Below the pieces are notes generated by a model. It searched no databases. It saw only the letters and a program-made list of their open reading frames with translations, and was not told where the DNA came from. Made by a program: the position numbers and the translations under genes. A DNA stretch of 20,162 nucleotides from a virus (lineage: Duplodnaviria; Heunggongvirae; Uroviricota; Caudoviricetes): the IMG/VR virus record IMGVR_UViG_2684623171_000007; one strand, written 5' to 3'. Below are positions 9,711 through 20,162 of the stretch, one piece after another (within the stretch, counting starts at the first letter, position 1; the number at the start of each line of letters is the position of its first letter).

Positions 9711-10025
9711 TTATTCTGGGAATAAGGTCTGAATATTCTTTTTTATTTTATAAAAATTGCATTCAACTCCGCTAGGCTGATTAGCCTGGTATGTTTCCTT
9801 GATGCTAACGGTATTGAAGGGGAGGTTGTCCTCTGGCCATTCGGCCATCCAGTAGGCAAATGCTGGGTTGCGCTTTATGAGTGCTAGCCCAGCCAGAAAG
9901 GCCGCGCGTTGCGCGCGGCTGCGTTCGGAGGCTGGCAGGCTATCGAGGTAATTGCACGCCTCCTGTTCACTCTTGACGGCGGCGGGCTTCAGATAGAAAC
10001 TTATCCGTCTGGTTGGTGTCGTCAT
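9711..10025 (-). CDS. parR: ParR/StbB-like centromere-binding partition protein (ribbon-helix-helix)
   Basis: ORF track 104 aa; starts 5 bp after the parM-like stop. N-terminal half (RRISFYLKP...LDSLPASERSRAQRAAFLAGLAL) resembles ParR of plasmid R1 as I recall it (..TIAFKLNP..LDSIPQGERSRLNRAALTAGLAL..). The C-terminal third is divergent and encoded by AT-rich DNA next to the IS junction. Confidence 0.6.
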   Translation of the reverse strand: MTTPTRRISFYLKPAAVKSEQEACNYLDSLPASERSRAQRAAFLAGLALIKRNPAFAYWMAEWPEDNLPFNTVSIKETYQANQPSGVECNFYKIKKNIQTLFPE

Positions 10026-10029
10026 TGGT

Positions 10030-10989
10030 TTACTCCTTGTTCATTGCGTACAACCCATTAACCAGAGCAAACTGTGGCACCCCGTCCGCGATGAAAGTCG
10101 CATTAACTCCGCAGGCTTCGCGGATAGCGGTTGCCACAATCTCCGCCCCGCCACCGACAACCATCACCCGCCCGTAACCCGAAAAAACCGCCAGCGCGCG
10201 GATCACGCGTTGTTTCAGTGTTTCTTCCTTTTCACGAATAACCGCCATCAGGCTGGCGTAATGCGCGTCATTGTGGATGTGCTGGCGCAGCCAGGCTTCA
10301 TCATGGCGATGTTCGATAATGGTATTGGCGATGTGGTGACTGGTGCGCATACCGTTAGTGGCCATCACCGACAGTACGGCATCGGCCATCAGAGAAACGC
10401 CTACGTGTGGATCGCAAAACACCTGGCTGATACCTGCCAGTTGCCCCTGAACCTTTGCCACATCCAGCGTGGTTCCGCCCAAATCCACAATCAGCAGGGA
10501 TTCAAACGGACTCATGTCAGCCAGTGCCTTAAAGCCAGCAGGAATGGATTCAGGCATAACCCGTACGTTACGGATAGTGAATGCTTCGCCGTTCTGGTAC
10601 TCCACCGGGCGCATGACGTTCGCTTTTTTGCGGTTGATGTTGGCCATGTCCGGCTGTGCGTTTGTATCGAAATACTCGCTCAGTGGCAGGGTGACAACCA
10701 CATCCACTTCCTGTGGTGTGATGCCTGATTTGACCAGCGCGTGATGAATGGCAATTACATTCACATCGCTGTACTGGTATTGCGTGTCGGTCGTCTGGAC
10801 AAAGCGATCGCTGACCGGATCAAAACCATAGCGCACGCCATCAAGCATGTAGTTCGCGGGCTGCGTGCCACCGAATGGCGCAGACCATTCCGACTTGAAG
10901 CTGTTCGGGCTGATGGCGTTGCGGCGTTCGCCGTTCTCAGTCCATGCCAGCTTGATGTTGGTGGAGCCGTCGTCGATACAAATTTTCAT
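10030..10989 (-). CDS. parM: ParM/StbA-like actin-type partition ATPase
   Basis: ORF track 319 aa with AAGGA Shine-Dalgarno. Family-defining blocks IDDGSTNIKL, ISPNSF, YQYSDVNVIAIHHAL, MPESIPAG, LIVDLGGTTLD, GVSL, FSGY..VMVVGGGAE and LVNGLY align with R1 ParM/StbA as I recall it. Confidence 0.85.
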   Translation of the reverse strand: MKICIDDGSTNIKLAWTENGERRNAISPNSFKSEWSAPFGGTQPANYMLDGVRYGFDPVSDRFVQTTDTQYQYSDVNVIAIHHALVKSGITPQEVDVVVTLPLSEYFDTNAQPDMANINRKKANVMRPVEYQNGEAFTIRNVRVMPESIPAGFKALADMSPFESLLIVDLGGTTLDVAKVQGQLAGISQVFCDPHVGVSLMADAVLSVMATNGMRTSHHIANTIIEHRHDEAWLRQHIHNDAHYASLMAVIREKEETLKQRVIRALAVFSGYGRVMVVGGGAEIVATAIREACGVNATFIADGVPQFALVNGLYAMNKE

Positions 10990-14332: not shown

Positions 14333-14563
14333 TTAATGGAGTTTGTTTTGCTGCTGGATGAGCTGTTGAAACTCGTGCAGATCATCCGCCAGATAGCTGA
14401 AAACAGAGGCGGAATAAATGTTTGATAGTGCGTGGCTGCGCTCATGCAGCATATTGATGTGCATGATTTGCGCGACGCGTGATGCGCGGGAAAGTCTGCG
14501 GTTGATTTCAGTCTGGATGTGACGACGCTCCGCGATAGCGCGGTGCTGTTTGCGGTCTGCCAT
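14333..14563 (-). CDS. hypothetical small basic protein (76 aa)
   Basis: ORF track; AAGAGG Shine-Dalgarno about 8 nt upstream of the ATG. Preferred over the overlapping 205-aa ORF 14257..14874, which has low-complexity composition. Confidence 0.4.
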   Translation of the reverse strand: MADRKQHRAIAERRHIQTEINRRLSRASRVAQIMHINMLHERSHALSNIYSASVFSYLADDLHEFQQLIQQQNKLH

Positions 14564-14740
14564 GGTGTGGCCTCTTTGCTCGGTGATAGAAATAACTCAC
14601 CATCCAGAGTTGAGAATCTCGGGGTGGCGAGACGTACAGGGTTCTCAACACCGGAGAGCAAAGAATCCGGCCCGACCGAAGTCGGCCCCGTACGCCCCGC
14701 CATAATTCTGACGCGAAAAAGACGTGGCAATACAGTACGC

Positions 14741-14764
14741 ACAAAAAAACCGCTAGCGCGGTTA
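14741..14764 (-). terminator. candidate rho-independent terminator on the minus strand
   Basis: On the minus strand: 6-bp stem AACCGC/GCGGTT with a 4-nt loop, followed by TTTTTTT (plus strand reads ACAAAAAAACCGCTAGCGCGGTT). Confidence 0.4.
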
Positions 14765-14835
14765 TGCGCTTTGCTCTGTATCGGGTTGAGAATCCCGGCA
14801 CCCGTTTTATGAGGTGCAGCGGAAATGTAACCTGA

Positions 14836-14864
14836 CCGATTGCGGCATGGCAAGCGGTTTTTTT
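14836..14864 (+). terminator. candidate rho-independent terminator on the plus strand (antisense to the early operon)
   Basis: CCGATTGC-GGCATG-GCAAGCGG (8-bp stem with one mismatch, 6-nt loop) followed by TTTTTTT. Confidence 0.4.
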
Positions 14865-14885
14865 GTGTGTGCATGTTCTGGTTTC

Positions 14886-16833: not shown

Positions 16834-17184
16834 TTATAAATCAGCCTGTTTAATAAAACTTTGCCCGCGAAGCAGACGATCAACCGTGCGAAGTGCTTCG
16901 TATAATGTGAAATCCTGCCCGAAGTGATTGTCGCCGCAGTTCAATGCAAAAATGCGGTTCCCGGTAAACGGATTGCGTGGGCATTTGTGGACCACGATTC
17001 CAGCTTTCTCAATCAGCCAGGCATGTTCGCCGATTTGTTTTACAGCGTGGCCATCCGGTGTTGCATGCGTCTCGTTCAGGTTATAGCGACTGTTACTACG
17101 TGATGCACTGGTAGCGACGTGGTGTACATGGCGTTCTACGCCATTACGAAATTTGGAGTATGGATTATTAGCGTTTTTTTTCAT
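16834..17184 (-). CDS. hypothetical protein
   Basis: ORF track 116 aa; operon context. Confidence 0.45.
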   Translation of the reverse strand: MKKNANNPYSKFRNGVERHVHHVATSASRSNSRYNLNETHATPDGHAVKQIGEHAWLIEKAGIVVHKCPRNPFTGNRIFALNCGDNHFGQDFTLYEALRTVDRLLRGQSFIKQADL

Positions 17185-17205
17185 GATGGTGCTCTGTTCA
17201 TTGTT

Positions 17206-17409
17206 TTAGCTGTTAGCCAAAGCGTCTTTTAACATCGCCACAAGGTTTACTTCAGGCTTTTCCATTTTGGCGCGTTTGGGGCGGATAATAATTCGACCGT
17301 CAGCCAACATCTTTTTGCATGTATTAAGAGGGATACCTGTTATCTCTGCATATTTCTGCAGGGATACATAGGGGGCATTCACATTGATATTGATGGTTAT
17401 ACCTGACAT
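17206..17409 (-). CDS. Cox/excisionase-like small HTH protein
   Basis: ORF track 67 aa. The segment PYVSLQKYAEITGIPLNTCKKMLADGRIIIRP resembles the P2 Cox segment as I recall it (IPYQEFAKLIGKSTGAVRRMIDKGKLPVI). Second gene of the early operon. Confidence 0.5.
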   Translation of the reverse strand: MSGITININVNAPYVSLQKYAEITGIPLNTCKKMLADGRIIIRPKRAKMEKPEVNLVAMLKDALANS

Positions 17410-17425
17410 CCCACTAGCCTCCTGA

Positions 17426-17632
17426 TCAGGAAGATTTGTTTTGTTCTTTCTGGGTTAGCTCTAGGCCGCGAAGGGAGATCATGCGCGCCATGTTAGAGGA
17501 TGAGCGTTGTTCTTTAGCTGCCATTTCATCAATGACGGCTCGCTCCTCGAGGGACAGCCGAAGTGCCAGTCTTGGACCTGTGGCGGTGTTACGCGGAATG
17601 CGTGATCTGGTATCGTGAAGAACTTGTTTCAT
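17426..17632 (-). CDS. ribbon-helix-helix (Arc/CopG-like) DNA-binding protein, first gene of the early operon
   Basis: ORF track 68 aa; the pattern PRLALRLSLEERAVIDEMAAKEQRSSSNMARMI fits a beta-strand followed by two helices as in RHH repressors. Immediately downstream of the divergent promoter region. Confidence 0.5.
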   Translation of the reverse strand: MKQVLHDTRSRIPRNTATGPRLALRLSLEERAVIDEMAAKEQRSSSNMARMISLRGLELTQKEQNKSS

Positions 17633-17707
17633 AGTGGTATATTGTGATCATCTAATAGCTCGTGAAATCATTTTGGTATCAAAAAAGATACCTGTCAAGG
17701 TTTTTGT
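17633..17707. promoter_or_regulatory. divergent promoter/operator region between the repressor gene and the early operon
   Basis: 75-bp intergenic region between divergent genes. Contains the perfect inverted repeat GGTATC-AAAAAA-GATACC (~17675-17692) next to a consensus TTGACA -35 hexamer on the minus strand (~17693-17698), plus TATATT/TAATAG -10-like hexamers. Confidence 0.5.
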
Positions 17708-18112
17708 ATGAAAAATGATATTGGTCGGCGGTTGCGTGAGGAAAGGGAAAGATTGGGACTTAGTCAAGTTGCCATGAGCGACATTGGTGGAGTCAAAAAG
17801 CTAACTCAGCTTAGATATGAGAAAGGAGATAGCTTTCCTGATGCTGCGTATTTGGCAGCGCTGTCTCGTTTTGGCCTTGATGTTCAGTATGTTGTGTTGG
17901 GAATTCACTCACCTGAAACTTATAACGATGATGAGCAGGAATTGATTACTCGCTTTCGAGCAGCTTCGTTAGATGTGAAAAACGCGGTGATTGGGGCTTT
18001 AAAAGGTGCGATCAGTGAAAAGGAAACTCAGCCATCAGGACGTGAGTTAAATATTTCTGGTGGTAATAACCGTATCGCTGGTCGTGACTATAACGAAACT
18101 AAGGGTAGGTGA
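17708..18112 (+). CDS. XRE-family HTH repressor (P2 C / 186 CI-like immunity repressor candidate)
   Basis: ORF track 134 aa. N-terminal Cro/C1-type HTH (IGRRLREERERLGLSQVAMSDIGGVKKLTQLRYEKGDSFPDAAYLAALSRFGLDV); divergent from the early operon and on the integrase strand, as in P2. Confidence 0.7.
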   Translation: MKNDIGRRLREERERLGLSQVAMSDIGGVKKLTQLRYEKGDSFPDAAYLAALSRFGLDVQYVVLGIHSPETYNDDEQELITRFRAASLDVKNAVIGALKGAISEKETQPSGRELNISGGNNRIAGRDYNETKGR

Positions 18113-18127
18113 TAGTAGGGAGGTGAC

Positions 18128-18778
18128 ATGGCCGTCAACTCAAACGGTTCAAACAATCGCGTTGCTGGGCGTGATTTTCACGAAAAGAATATTCAGATAG
18201 AGCGATATGATGGTTCTCATACCGTCAATATCGCAATCCCTTCGAATAATGATGATGACGATCGCCCTTTGCTTAAGGCTCAGCGTAAGGAGCTAAATAG
18301 CTTGGTTGCTGCTATTGCAGAAGCTAGCAATACTGAAGCGTTTATTATTTGGCAAAAAGTACATGCGGAGATTGGTGTAGCTGGTATTGATGATATGACA
18401 GTAAATCAATATAAAACAGCGGAGAGTTTTCTGCATGCAATGCTTGAGCGATGTAAAGATCATGATGCCTGTAAGGCTCTTGTAAGTTTATTACTACGTA
18501 ACAGTGAAGACTGTGGACTTCGACAAAAACTTCTGCGGTATTGCCATATCAATTTCGGTACAGGACGTTTAAACGATCTTACTCGTTCTCAGTTACAGTC
18601 TGCATTGTCGTGGTTAGAGCAACAATCGGCATCAAGCCACATAGAGAGTTCGACCTTACCAGAAGTCCGACTTCGTGCTTCAGAATTAATCCGACTTTAT
18701 CCAAAAGAAATAATATTCTTTATCTGCGTAGGGGTTTTGGTAGGCGGTGTCATTTCTAGGGCGTTTTTTAATTTGTAA
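18128..18778 (+). CDS. hypothetical protein with a C-terminal transmembrane anchor (cargo between repressor and integrase)
   Basis: ORF track 216 aa; GGGAGG Shine-Dalgarno 6 nt upstream. C-terminal hydrophobic segment IIFFICVGVLVGGVISRAFF. N-terminus repeats the motif found at the repressor C-terminus (GSNNRVAGRDFHE versus GGNNRIAGRDYNE). Confidence 0.55.
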   Translation: MAVNSNGSNNRVAGRDFHEKNIQIERYDGSHTVNIAIPSNNDDDDRPLLKAQRKELNSLVAAIAEASNTEAFIIWQKVHAEIGVAGIDDMTVNQYKTAESFLHAMLERCKDHDACKALVSLLLRNSEDCGLRQKLLRYCHINFGTGRLNDLTRSQLQSALSWLEQQSASSHIESSTLPEVRLRASELIRLYPKEIIFFICVGVLVGGVISRAFFNL

Positions 18779-19160: not shown

Positions 19161-20162
19161 ATGTCGGTTCGTAAGATTCCATCAGGTAAATGGCTTTGTG
19201 AATGTTATCCCTACGGGGCATCGGGAAAACGCATTCGTAAACAGTTTGCGACAAAAAGTGAGGCGCTCTCTTATGAGCGCCGTTTAATGAATAGTAGAGT
19301 TGGAGACGAGTTTCAAGATGGTTCTGGTTCTCGTCTTTCTGAGTTGATTGCTCGTTGGTTTGAGATGTACGGTAAAACCTTGTCCTCTGGTGCAGAGCGC
19401 AAAGTCAAACTTGAGGCGATTTGTTCCAGGCTGGGAGATCCATTTGCTTCTCAGTTTGACAAAAATATGTTTGCTACTTATCGGGAAAGAAGGCTATCAG
19501 GAGAATGGAATCCCAAGGGGAAGAAAAAACTTAGTGAAGCAACCGTTAATCGCGAGCAGTCATATCTACATGCTGTTTTTGCCGAACTGAAGCGCCTTGG
19601 GGAGTGGTCTGGTGAAAACCCCCTGACTGGTATTCGCAAGTTTCGTGAGGAAGAAAAGGAACTGGCGTTTCTGTATGTAGATGAGATTGAACGCCTTCTG
19701 ATTGCGTGTGATGAGTCACGGAATAAAGATTTGGGGGTTGTTGTCCGTATTGGGCTTGCGACTGGTGCTCGGTGGAGTGAAGCAGAAGGATTAAAGCAAT
19801 CTCAAGTACTGCCCGGTCGAATCACATTTGTTAAAACTAAAGGAAAGAAGAACCGCACTGTACCGATTTCACCTCAATTGCAAGCTATGCTTCCTAAAAA
19901 ACGAGGAGCGCTATTTTCACCATGTTATGAGGCTTTTGACGCTGCAATTAAGAGAGCGAAGATCGAGCTTCCTGATGGGCAATTAACTCATGTGCTACGT
20001 CACACGTTTGCCAGTCATTTTATGATGCGGGGTGGAAATATTCTTGTGTTGCAAAAAATACTGGGGCATAGCGATATAAAAATGACTATGCGTTATGCGC
20101 ATTTTGCTCCAGGTCATTTAGAGGCTGCTGTTGAATTGAACCCTTTTGACAATAGAGGGTAA
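19161..20162 (+). CDS. int: tyrosine recombinase, phage integrase (P2 Int family)
   Basis: ORF track 333 aa; the catalytic-domain signature ..ATGARWSE.. / HVLRHTFASHFMMRGGNILVLQKILGHSDIKMTMRYAHF contains the conserved R, H-x-x-R and Y of tyrosine recombinases. The stop codon is the last triplet of the window, so any attachment site lies outside. Confidence 0.9.
   Translation: MSVRKIPSGKWLCECYPYGASGKRIRKQFATKSEALSYERRLMNSRVGDEFQDGSGSRLSELIARWFEMYGKTLSSGAERKVKLEAICSRLGDPFASQFDKNMFATYRERRLSGEWNPKGKKKLSEATVNREQSYLHAVFAELKRLGEWSGENPLTGIRKFREEEKELAFLYVDEIERLLIACDESRNKDLGVVVRIGLATGARWSEAEGLKQSQVLPGRITFVKTKGKKNRTVPISPQLQAMLPKKRGALFSPCYEAFDAAIKRAKIELPDGQLTHVLRHTFASHFMMRGGNILVLQKILGHSDIKMTMRYAHFAPGHLEAAVELNPFDNRG

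Follow-up and report, generated by a model that had tools for sequence, protein, structure and literature searches.

We analyzed a stretch of viral DNA of 20,162 nucleotides (nt) (Caudoviricetes; IMG/VR record IMGVR_UViG_2684623171_000007), referred to at its full length as the window, and focused on the short region between its immunity repressor gene and its early genes. This region contains a palindrome, O1, at positions 17675-17692. Our comparison of homologous loci makes it likely that O1 is the main binding site of the prophage's own 134-amino acid (aa) XRE-type repressor and that it is placed inside the early lytic promoter, here termed Pe. Where the repressor gene and the early genes of a phage meet, an operator is as such an expected, ordinary element. 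The initial annotation had proposed that a repressor dimer bound to this palindrome would block the early promoter, and this idea is backed by the conserved position of the site, by symmetric compensatory change in its arms, and by co-variation with the recognition helix of the XRE repressor.

O1 (no strand assigned) consists of two half-sites, GGTATC (17675-17680) and GATACC (17687-17692), which are separated by AAAAAA (17681-17686). Direct reading and a pattern search both confirmed the perfect inverted repeat GGTATC-N6-GATACC reported earlier. In the 7-4-7 frame that holds family-wide, the site reads GGTATCA-AAAA-AGATACC. A promoter scan of positions 17100-18200 returned a single sigma-70-like site, Pe, on the minus strand (10 of 12 matches). 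Its -35 hexamer TTGACA maps to 17698-17693 (TGTCAA on the plus strand) and its -10 hexamer CAAAAT to 17675-17670, with a 17-nt spacer in between. Pe points to the gene of a 68-aa ribbon-helix-helix (RHH) protein (17632-17426), and transcription is predicted to start near 17663, in which case O1 covers approximately -29 to -12 of the promoter. The palindrome had been described as overlapping the -35 element; it rather fills the 17-nt spacer, abuts the -35 hexamer, and covers the first base of the -10 hexamer. The adjoining TGTCAAGG (17693-17700, plus strand) is used twice: its complement provides the Pe -35 hexamer, and its AAGG, which overlaps TGTCAA and sits 7 nt before the repressor ATG, is a Shine-Dalgarno-like sequence of the repressor gene. 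GTCAAGG is kept among enterobacterial relatives.

We next compared the region with homologous loci. More than 200 repressor homologues were found, for which 80 genomic loci were fetched, with six more coming from exact-protein look-ups and one from a Burkholderia phage. We scored an operator where GTCAA is directly abutted by an 18-mer whose arms are symmetric in at least 6 of their 7 positions. Such an 18-mer is present in 41 of the 52 distinct homologous upstream regions that contain GTCAA, but at only one of 220 copies of GTCAA found elsewhere in these loci. In the relatives, [TAC]GTCAA directly adjoins O1. There are 36 distinct operator sequences, and symmetry is kept in each of them, as illustrated by GGTATTC-gttt-GAATACC, GGTACTC-aaac-GAGTACC, GGTAACT-aaat-AGTTACC, ATTCAAC-gaat-GTTGAAT, and GGTGTGA-aaaa-ACACACC; in the centre, the four bases between the arms are almost always A/T-rich. 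To the left of the operator we found AT[TG]nTG, which corresponds to CAn[AC]AT on the minus strand. The Pe -10 hexamer is therefore conserved as well, together with its 17-nt spacer, and reads CATAAT, CACAAT, CAGAAT, or CATCAT at the same place in relatives. In every lineage O1 is located exactly in the Pe spacer, while anything from 14 to ~40 nt separates it from the repressor start. The hosts of the compared loci include Enterobacterales, Orbales (Gilliamella), Pasteurellaceae, Aeromonas, Pseudomonas, Halomonas, Lysobacter, Cellvibrio, Burkholderia, Bordetella, and Achromobacter, among others, and the hosts in which this operator architecture occurs are Gamma- and Betaproteobacteria.

A Pseudomonas subgroup of the repressor homologues (L036, L038, L041, L045-L053, L060-L066, L069-L070, and L078-L079; proteins starting MNGIG, with the helix GGVEPNAQG) lacks the operator/-35 architecture. 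A response-regulator gene is found downstream in these loci, in place of the Flk_N-like partner gene described below, and the subgroup looks like a chromosomal, non-phage group of paralogues.

The operator arms co-vary with the recognition helix of the XRE repressor. Half-site base 5 follows repressor residue 32: leucine occurs with T in 21 of 22 half-sites, glutamine with C in 20 of 22, and lysine with A in 8 of 8, giving the half-sites GGTAT, GGTAC, and GGTAA, respectively. Thus, helices of the type GGVKKL[TA]QL are found with GGTAT, and GGV[RQK]KQAQL and AGIRKQTQL with GGTAC. Further pairings are xTTKKSQI with GGTAACT, GVKKWTQI with GGTGTG, GV[AS]KT[ST]QF with TTCAAC, GVGKTTQI with GGTTCAT, and GASKRSQL with GGTGCAG, and fully different helices carry fully different half-sites (GTTCCC, TTCAAC, GGTTCAT, GGTGCAG). 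Two otherwise closely related Escherichia coli loci provide a natural specificity swap: L086 (repressor P0002) combines the helix VKKLTQL with the operator GGTATC-aaaaat-GATATC, and L084 (P0004) combines IRKQTQL with GGTACG-aaaaaa-CGTACC. Leu-32 aligns without gaps with Val-33 of the P22 c2 repressor, which packs on thymine methyls in each half of the 18-base pair (bp) P22 operator (PMC5175364). This alignment renders the pairing of leucine with T physically plausible. The resulting recognition rule, from residue 32 to half-site base 5, may allow immunity groups to be predicted from sequence.

A second operator over the repressor start codon, which the earlier reading of this palindrome had overlooked, is suggested by the comparison. 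O2 (TGTATG-AAAAAT-GATATT, 17705-17722, no strand assigned) covers the start codon at 17708-17710 and appears to be the weaker site. It agrees with O1 at 9 of 14 arm positions and lies 30 bp away, both centre-to-centre and start-to-start, so that O1 and O2 bracket the Pe -35 hexamer. Over 36 distinct loci, the operator of a locus matches its own downstream region with a mean best score of 8.8 of 14, compared with 7.0 for cross pairs, and none of 20,000 permutations reached the observed score (p<5e-5, phylogeny not being modelled). The best O1-O2 offsets cluster at 30-32 bp. In the Salmonella locus L088, GGTGTG recurs 31 bp away with the GTG start codon within it, and in L086 the second site reads TGTATG-gaaaat-GATATC. 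Burkholderia phage PhiBP82.2 has GGTGGTC-aatt-GACCGTT 31 bp from its O1, AGTGGTC-gaat-GACCACT. Repressor codons 3-5 vary such that they mimic the right half of O1, with GAGAATACC in L016 and CGAGTACA in L013. Being three helical turns apart, O1 and O2 are located on one face of the DNA, and a second dimer probably binds cooperatively at O2.

Other resemblances to the operator were rejected. TGGTAT occurs 15 times in the window, with three copies within 72 bp. The copy at 17635 is part of a conserved TGnTATATT, and relatives carrying TGATATATT lose the half-site; the copy at 17608 belongs to RHH coding sequence and is unchanged in a relative with a GGTACG operator. A potential distal operator that could have allowed for looping (17320-17337, TGTATTAAGAGGGATACC, two mismatches) corresponds to Thr-Gly-Ile-Pro codons in the Cox-like gene. 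Further copies of its own operator are no commoner in a locus than matches to the operators of other loci (0.44 versus 0.30 per locus).

How is the repressor gene itself transcribed? Only 9 nt (17699-17707) separate the Pe -35 hexamer from the repressor ATG. This leaves no room for a promoter, and the repressor gene should therefore be transcribed from the left, through Pe. The switch had been described as divergent, which is correct for the genes but probably not for the promoters, as these would not be arranged back-to-back. Our candidate for the repressor promoter, Pc, is the extended -10 element TGgTATATT at 17635-17643 on the plus strand, with a start near 17650-17651. It is contained in a block (CATAGTGGTATATTGTGATC, 17630-17649) that is nearly invariant in all RHH-type loci (eight compared) although O1 differs between them, and the block does not co-vary with O1. 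The core pattern TGnTATAnT is kept in the variants TGaTATATT (L001 and L088) and TGtTATAGT (L016), in which the GGTAT half-site is destroyed. The variants TGATATATT, of phage 520873 and Salmonella, and TGTTATAGT, of Serratia, keep this pattern. PhiBP82.2 has TATACT at the equivalent position. The predicted starts of Pc (~17650) and Pe (~17663) would face each other at a distance of ~13 bp. Polymerase footprints would overlap in such an arrangement, and the two promoters would exclude each other. The phrase "distinct switch architecture" used in the initial annotation thus overstates the case: the predicted topology is face-to-face as in P2 and 186, and only the parts differ (an XRE repressor, an inverted-repeat operator, and an RHH gene in first position).

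The two predicted starts are flanked by the conserved boxes GTGATC (17644-17649) and GTGA (17662-17665) (no strand assigned), which form invariant columns across the RHH-type loci. The second box takes the form of a small palindrome, GTGA(N1-2)TCAC, in some relatives. One may speculate that the boxes are candidate targets of the RHH protein, the Cox-like protein, or both. Co-variation has no power to locate RHH sites, because the DNA-facing residues of the RHH protein hardly vary among loci. Repeats assignable to the Cox-like protein as binding sites were not found.

Together, these elements suggest the following switch. In the lysogen, repressor dimers would occupy O1 strongly and O2 weakly, with one recognition helix per GGTATC half-site and with the A-rich centre not being read base by base. 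Bound O1 would exclude RNA polymerase and shut Pe, leaving the early operon, from the RHH and Cox-like genes on to replication, silent, and the second dimer at O2 would tighten this repression. Silencing of Pe would relieve interference on Pc. At high repressor levels, dimers on O1 and O2, which lie at approximately +25 to +72 of Pc, would obstruct the repressor's own transcript. Should repression fail, Pe would fire, and the RHH protein, which takes the position of Cro, Cox, or Apl, would presumably shut Pc via the invariant boxes at ~17630-17665, while the Cox/Xis-like protein would direct excision. In this scheme, the binding of the repressor and its cooperativity, the two start sites, and the functions given to the RHH and Cox-like proteins are all inferred.

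Several observations weigh against our assignment of O1 and of the surrounding elements. The assignment is wholly comparative, for this phage as well as for the entire family. Within the window alone, O1 is not statistically unusual: the 20 kb contain 81 perfect inverted repeats whose arms measure 6 nt and whose spacers measure 2-10 nt, and 16.7% of shuffled versions of the 75-nt intergenic region contain such a repeat. The significance of O1 comes solely from the comparison with other loci. The repressor helix-turn-helix (HTH) matches Pfam models below their gathering scores. The association counts between helix and half-site, and the permutation tests, ignore phylogeny; leucine and glutamine variants alternate within the Escherichia-type, Pasteurellaceae, and Yersinia/Hafnia lineages. 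The Pe -10 hexamer (CAAAAT) is mediocre, and the -35 of Pc is poor (GTGAAG). The Pc block doubles as the 5' leader of the RHH mRNA, a transcript that lacks a Shine-Dalgarno sequence, and conservation of the block could have another cause. O2 in the window has only 9 of 14 arm matches, and its similarity to O1 could partly reflect conserved N-terminal codons (an Ile-Gly motif), because O2 is located in coding sequence.

We considered four other explanations for O1. The repressor could bind O1 and O2 mainly for roadblock autoregulation, with Pe being governed mostly by competition between the promoters or by a further factor, the Flk_N-like partner for instance. Both sites indeed lie within the predicted Pc transcript and O2 covers the start codon. 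In addition, the PhiBP82.2 partner gene is also needed for lysogeny (PMC13026187), and in P2, high concentrations of C repress Pc (PMC3448106). O1, which is perfectly symmetric and the stronger of the two sites, however, holds its register to Pe and not to the repressor start, from which it is removed by 14 to ~40 nt in different lineages, and we thus regard roadblock autoregulation as the principal function of these sites as unlikely.

RHH proteins such as Arc, Mnt, and CopG recognize short sites that are symmetric or repeated, and autoregulation is frequent among them. O1, which lies in the promoter of the RHH protein's own operon, could thus be an autoregulatory site for the RHH (or the Cox-like) protein, with the XRE repressor acting elsewhere. 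The initial annotation had left room for the RHH protein as a binder. L084 and L086, however, have identical RHH beta-strands and yet different palindromes, which follow the XRE helices, and the palindrome is also present in loci that have a Ner-like HTH protein as first early gene and no RHH protein. These two findings together exclude the RHH protein as the O1 binder. The half-site tracks XRE residue 32, and the blocks that are invariant across RHH-type loci are found elsewhere, at 17630-17665. We therefore consider autoregulation from O1 by an early protein very improbable.

A slightly poorer candidate still is an RNA hairpin in the repressor mRNA leader that acts on stability or translation. 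If Pc is located at 17635-17643, the palindrome would be transcribed 15 nt upstream of the AUG, and symmetric compensatory changes would keep a stem as well as a DNA site. The minimum-free-energy fold of the leader does not, however, use the O1 hairpin (z-score -1.7). A hairpin would furthermore leave unexplained the conserved GGTA...TACC core, the link to a helix residue, the fixed register to the -35 and -10 hexamers, and the non-palindromic extra half-site copy 30 bp away. Least probable of all is a chance inverted repeat beside a chance TTGACA: the repeat counts given above and the promoter scan (one site found, 2.5 expected from shuffles) would allow for it, but 41 of 52 homologous regions from two proteobacterial classes, against 1 of 220 controls, and the co-variation in specificity speak clearly against it. 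We thus favor O1 as the main operator of the XRE repressor within Pe.

The genes around the switch were assigned as follows. The immunity repressor gene (17708-18112, plus strand) encodes 134 residues with an N-terminal XRE-type HTH (recognition helix ~29-37), a conserved helix comprising residues 76-100, and the tail motif NNRIAGRDYNE. Family searches found no peptidase domain in this protein. Its HTH matches Pfam HTH_31 (E=4.5e-5) and also HTH_19 and HTH_3, and PHROG 8 (E=2.6e-14). The N-terminal domain of P22 c2 is the nearest solved structure by sequence (E=0.02, gapless over 50 residues).

The first early gene (17426-17632, minus strand) encodes the 68-aa RHH protein, which matches PHROG 3431, 'Arc-like repressor' (E=4e-27), and is presumed to be a Cro/Apl-like repressor of Pc. 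The protein alone has no Pfam match. In an alignment of 12 family members, 6 of 12 match Pfam RHH_5 (best E=0.0012), and others match RHH_7, NikA-like, RHH_1, or Arc models. The family profile matches solved RHH proteins, among them AtaR, HP0222, KacA, and CopG-family proteins, with E-values of 0.002-0.07; those of 6AJM (AtaR), 1X93 (HP0222), 5ZGN, and 6IYA are 0.002-0.03. An AlphaFold 2 (AF2) monomer model shows a long helix (residues 28-67) and a disordered N terminus at a local confidence (pLDDT) of 74; a monomer cannot show the dimeric fold. Conserved orthologues of the protein are found in enterobacterial relatives. In the RefSeq/PGAP annotation of O157:H7 the RHH gene is uncalled, and a 45-aa 'hypothetical protein' is called antisense to it (17481-17618, plus strand). 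An antisense open reading frame (ORF), gp39, is similarly called over the RHH-like gene in the PhiBP82.2 record.

The second early gene (17206-17409, minus strand) encodes a 67-aa Cox/Xis-like winged-helix protein, presumed to be the excision directionality factor. It matches PHROG 575, 'Cox-like' (E=1e-27), which P2 Cox also matches over residues 4-44 (E=4e-7); BLASTP gave no alignment between the 67-aa protein and P2 Cox. With its model of moderate confidence (pLDDT 66) as query, the top folds in Foldseek are Pukovnik Xis (4J2N; probability 1.00, template modelling (TM) scores 0.58/0.70) and P2 Cox (4LHF; probability 0.99, TMq 0.62), at weak E-values of 0.06-0.12. Single-sequence searches of the RHH and Cox-like proteins against solved structures returned nothing meaningful. 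The earlier gene assignments (repressor, RHH, Cox-like) are nevertheless borne out by PHROG and profile matches and by fold matches. The reported order, with the RHH gene first and the Cox-like gene second, unlike in P2 where cox comes first, holds as well and is conserved in enterobacterial relatives. A near-palindrome inside the Cox-like gene (CTGCATATTTCTGCAG, CTG-N10-CAG, 17346-17361) loosely resembles a LexA box, probably by chance. On the other side of the switch, the repressor is followed on the plus strand by two ORFs and, as the last gene in this direction, by the integrase gene (19161-20162, plus strand), which runs off the end of the window.

Many Escherichia coli O157:H7 chromosomes carry the switch region (17400-18120) at 100% identity, and the complete Escherichia phage 520873 (Peduoviridae, Xuanwuvirus) carries it at 98%. 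In the O157:H7 annotation, the region spanning the window (L082) holds a degraded P2-like prophage adjoining yecA. Insertion sequence (IS) insertions and a tape-measure gene with a frameshift are found in it, as are genes for tail sheath and tube, a replication endonuclease, ParM and partition, and an integrase. O157 Sakai has one P2-like prophage, Sp13, which is reported to excise and replicate. Mitomycin C is reported to raise Sp13 ~30-fold, along with its early transcripts, and its repressor has no peptidase motif (PMC2669165). We infer that the window represents an Sp13/CP-933T-type element; the switch would then be live although the prophage is defective, and would sit in an E. coli O157:H7 prophage in which DNA damage still leads to excision and replication. 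The ParM and partition protein genes (~9711-10989) adjoin the replication endonuclease gene, are also present in phage 520873, and hint at a possible extrachromosomal (phage-plasmid) lifestyle.

The early region also contains a gene for a P4 epsilon-like 'derepression protein' (PHROG 3688; 14333-14563, minus strand). We found no convincing LexA box near this gene or in the switch: CTGT-N8-ACAG with at most one mismatch gave 10 matches compared with 6.5 expected, and the intergenic region upstream of the epsilon-like gene (14564-14885) contains only a LexA half match, TACTGTAT. LexA control of the switch was consequently rejected.

The second gene of the lysogenic operon (18128-18778, plus strand) encodes ORF216, a 216-aa Flk_N-like protein with a C-terminal hydrophobic helix. 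PF27202 is precomputed for its homologues, and it matches the NCBIfam Flk model at E=8e-16, below the cut-off. A 12-aa motif is common to the C-terminal tail of the repressor (SGGNNRIAGRDYNETKGR, 18066-18112) and the N terminus of ORF216 (NSNGSNNRVAGRDFHEKN, 18128-18200). The two DNA copies are, by our own count, only ~64% identical, and conservation of the motif thus appears to act on the protein. Between lineages the motif, which is also present in L002-L088, varies, yet the two copies of one locus agree (self score 29.6 versus 19.2 for cross pairs; permutation p<5e-5, phylogeny not being modelled), as in Gilliamella (GEGQIAGGNIY/AEQIAGRDIY) and in L073 (KGDIAGRDIV/TGDVAGRDVV). The gp37 protein of PhiBP82.2 is a reciprocal PHROG match and a remote homologue of ORF216. 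It is needed for lysogeny, as its deletion results in a lytic phage (PMC13026187).

These findings raise the tentative idea, which we hold to be rather doubtful, of a two-protein immunity in which membrane-anchored ORF216 pairs with or protects the repressor tail, such that occupancy of O1 and O2 depends on the partner. If true, partner dependence would represent an induction route independent of LexA and of RecA cleavage, and could explain the mitomycin C response of Sp13 despite its peptidase-free repressor. The shared motif would then hint at a new way to hold or release a repressor.

We finally compared the switch to known lysis-lysogeny switches. P2-like switches are described as a pair of convergent promoters, each of which is repressed by the first product of the other (PMC3448106). 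Our locus resembles P2 in that the early operon extends to one side of the switch and the repressor, followed by the integrase, to the opposite side, and in a repressor without a peptidase domain. As in P2, the Pe -35 lies beside or over the repressor start codon, an operator is located in the Pe spacer with a second one nearby, and the candidate Pc faces Pe. In the annotated P2 record the elements are ordered C start codon, Pe -35, O1, Pe -10, O2, Pc -10, Pc -35, and cox, and the elements predicted here follow the same order. In contrast, P2 C has 99 residues and belongs to PHROG 147 rather than PHROG 8, and BLASTP aligns it with our repressor over the first 46 residues only (E=8e-5). The P2 operators are 8-bp direct repeats that flank the -10, whereas here 18-bp inverted repeats, 30 bp apart, flank the -35. 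The P2 starts are ~36 bp apart, compared with ~13 bp predicted here, and cox comes first in P2, whereas here a shorter Cox/Xis-like gene follows the RHH gene.

Phage 186, a P2-like phage, has face-to-face promoters, as predicted here, and a repressor that acts on inverted repeats (PMC3448106), and it is inducible by DNA damage, as is Sp13 (PMC2669165). Its CI repressor, however, has ~190 residues and was unrelated to ours in the tests made here. The first early gene of 186 encodes Apl, a Cox homologue, and is followed by cII, and its induction proceeds via LexA-controlled Tum, while no LexA box was found in our case.

With the lambdoid phages the switch shares an XRE/Cro-C1 HTH in the repressor, and with P22 c2 and 434 cI an 18-bp two-fold symmetric operator that has an A/T-rich, uncontacted centre and overlaps the lytic promoter. 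It differs in that the repressor has no C-terminal S24 peptidase/RecA-cleavage domain. In the lambdoid phages PR and PRM are back-to-back, with three adjacent sites and a Cro HTH protein, whereas here the promoters would be face-to-face, with two sites 30 bp apart and an RHH protein as the presumed counter-repressor. A small RHH transcriptional regulator is also known from the immI region of P22 (Arc, Mnt). The RHH protein here has no detectable direct similarity to Arc, takes the Cro/Cox position of the main switch, and its family profile resembles CopG, AtaR, and HP0222-type RHH proteins weakly.

A further related system is that of PhiBP82.2 (Tigrvirus). Its gp38 is a homologue of our repressor, and deletion of gp38 yields a lytic phage (PMC13026187). 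O1 of PhiBP82.2 (AGTGGTC-GAAT-GACCACT) abuts TGTCAA, its O2 lies 31 bp off over the start codon, its first early gene is RHH-like and unannotated, and its partner gene is homologous to ORF216. The two repressors are, however, only ~38% identical over the HTH, the half-sites differ, and an operator is not described in PMC13026187. The same paper relates that a face-to-face PL/PR arrangement has been proposed for the Burkholderia P2-like phage Milagro. For Burkholderia therapy phages, our recognition rule could help in designing virulent derivatives.

A 2011 survey of P2-like regulatory regions recognized P2 and 186 types and set others aside as unalignable. Our literature search returned no description of operators for the present repressor family and nothing on Xuanwuvirus regulation. 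P2-like and Mu-like phages that encode homologues of the repressor are known from Escherichia, Burkholderia, Ralstonia, and Pseudomonas, and the genomes of Salmonella, Klebsiella, Yersinia, Pectobacterium, and Pasteurellaceae contain related loci. The locus appears to define, down to single bases, how a third and widespread type of P2-like lysis-lysogeny switch, beside P2 and 186, is laid out in its control region. As judged from the compared loci, its topology would be the face-to-face arrangement of P2 and 186 and its operator recognition that of P22 c2 and 434, with a repressor that belongs to neither the P2 C family nor the lambdoid CI proteins.

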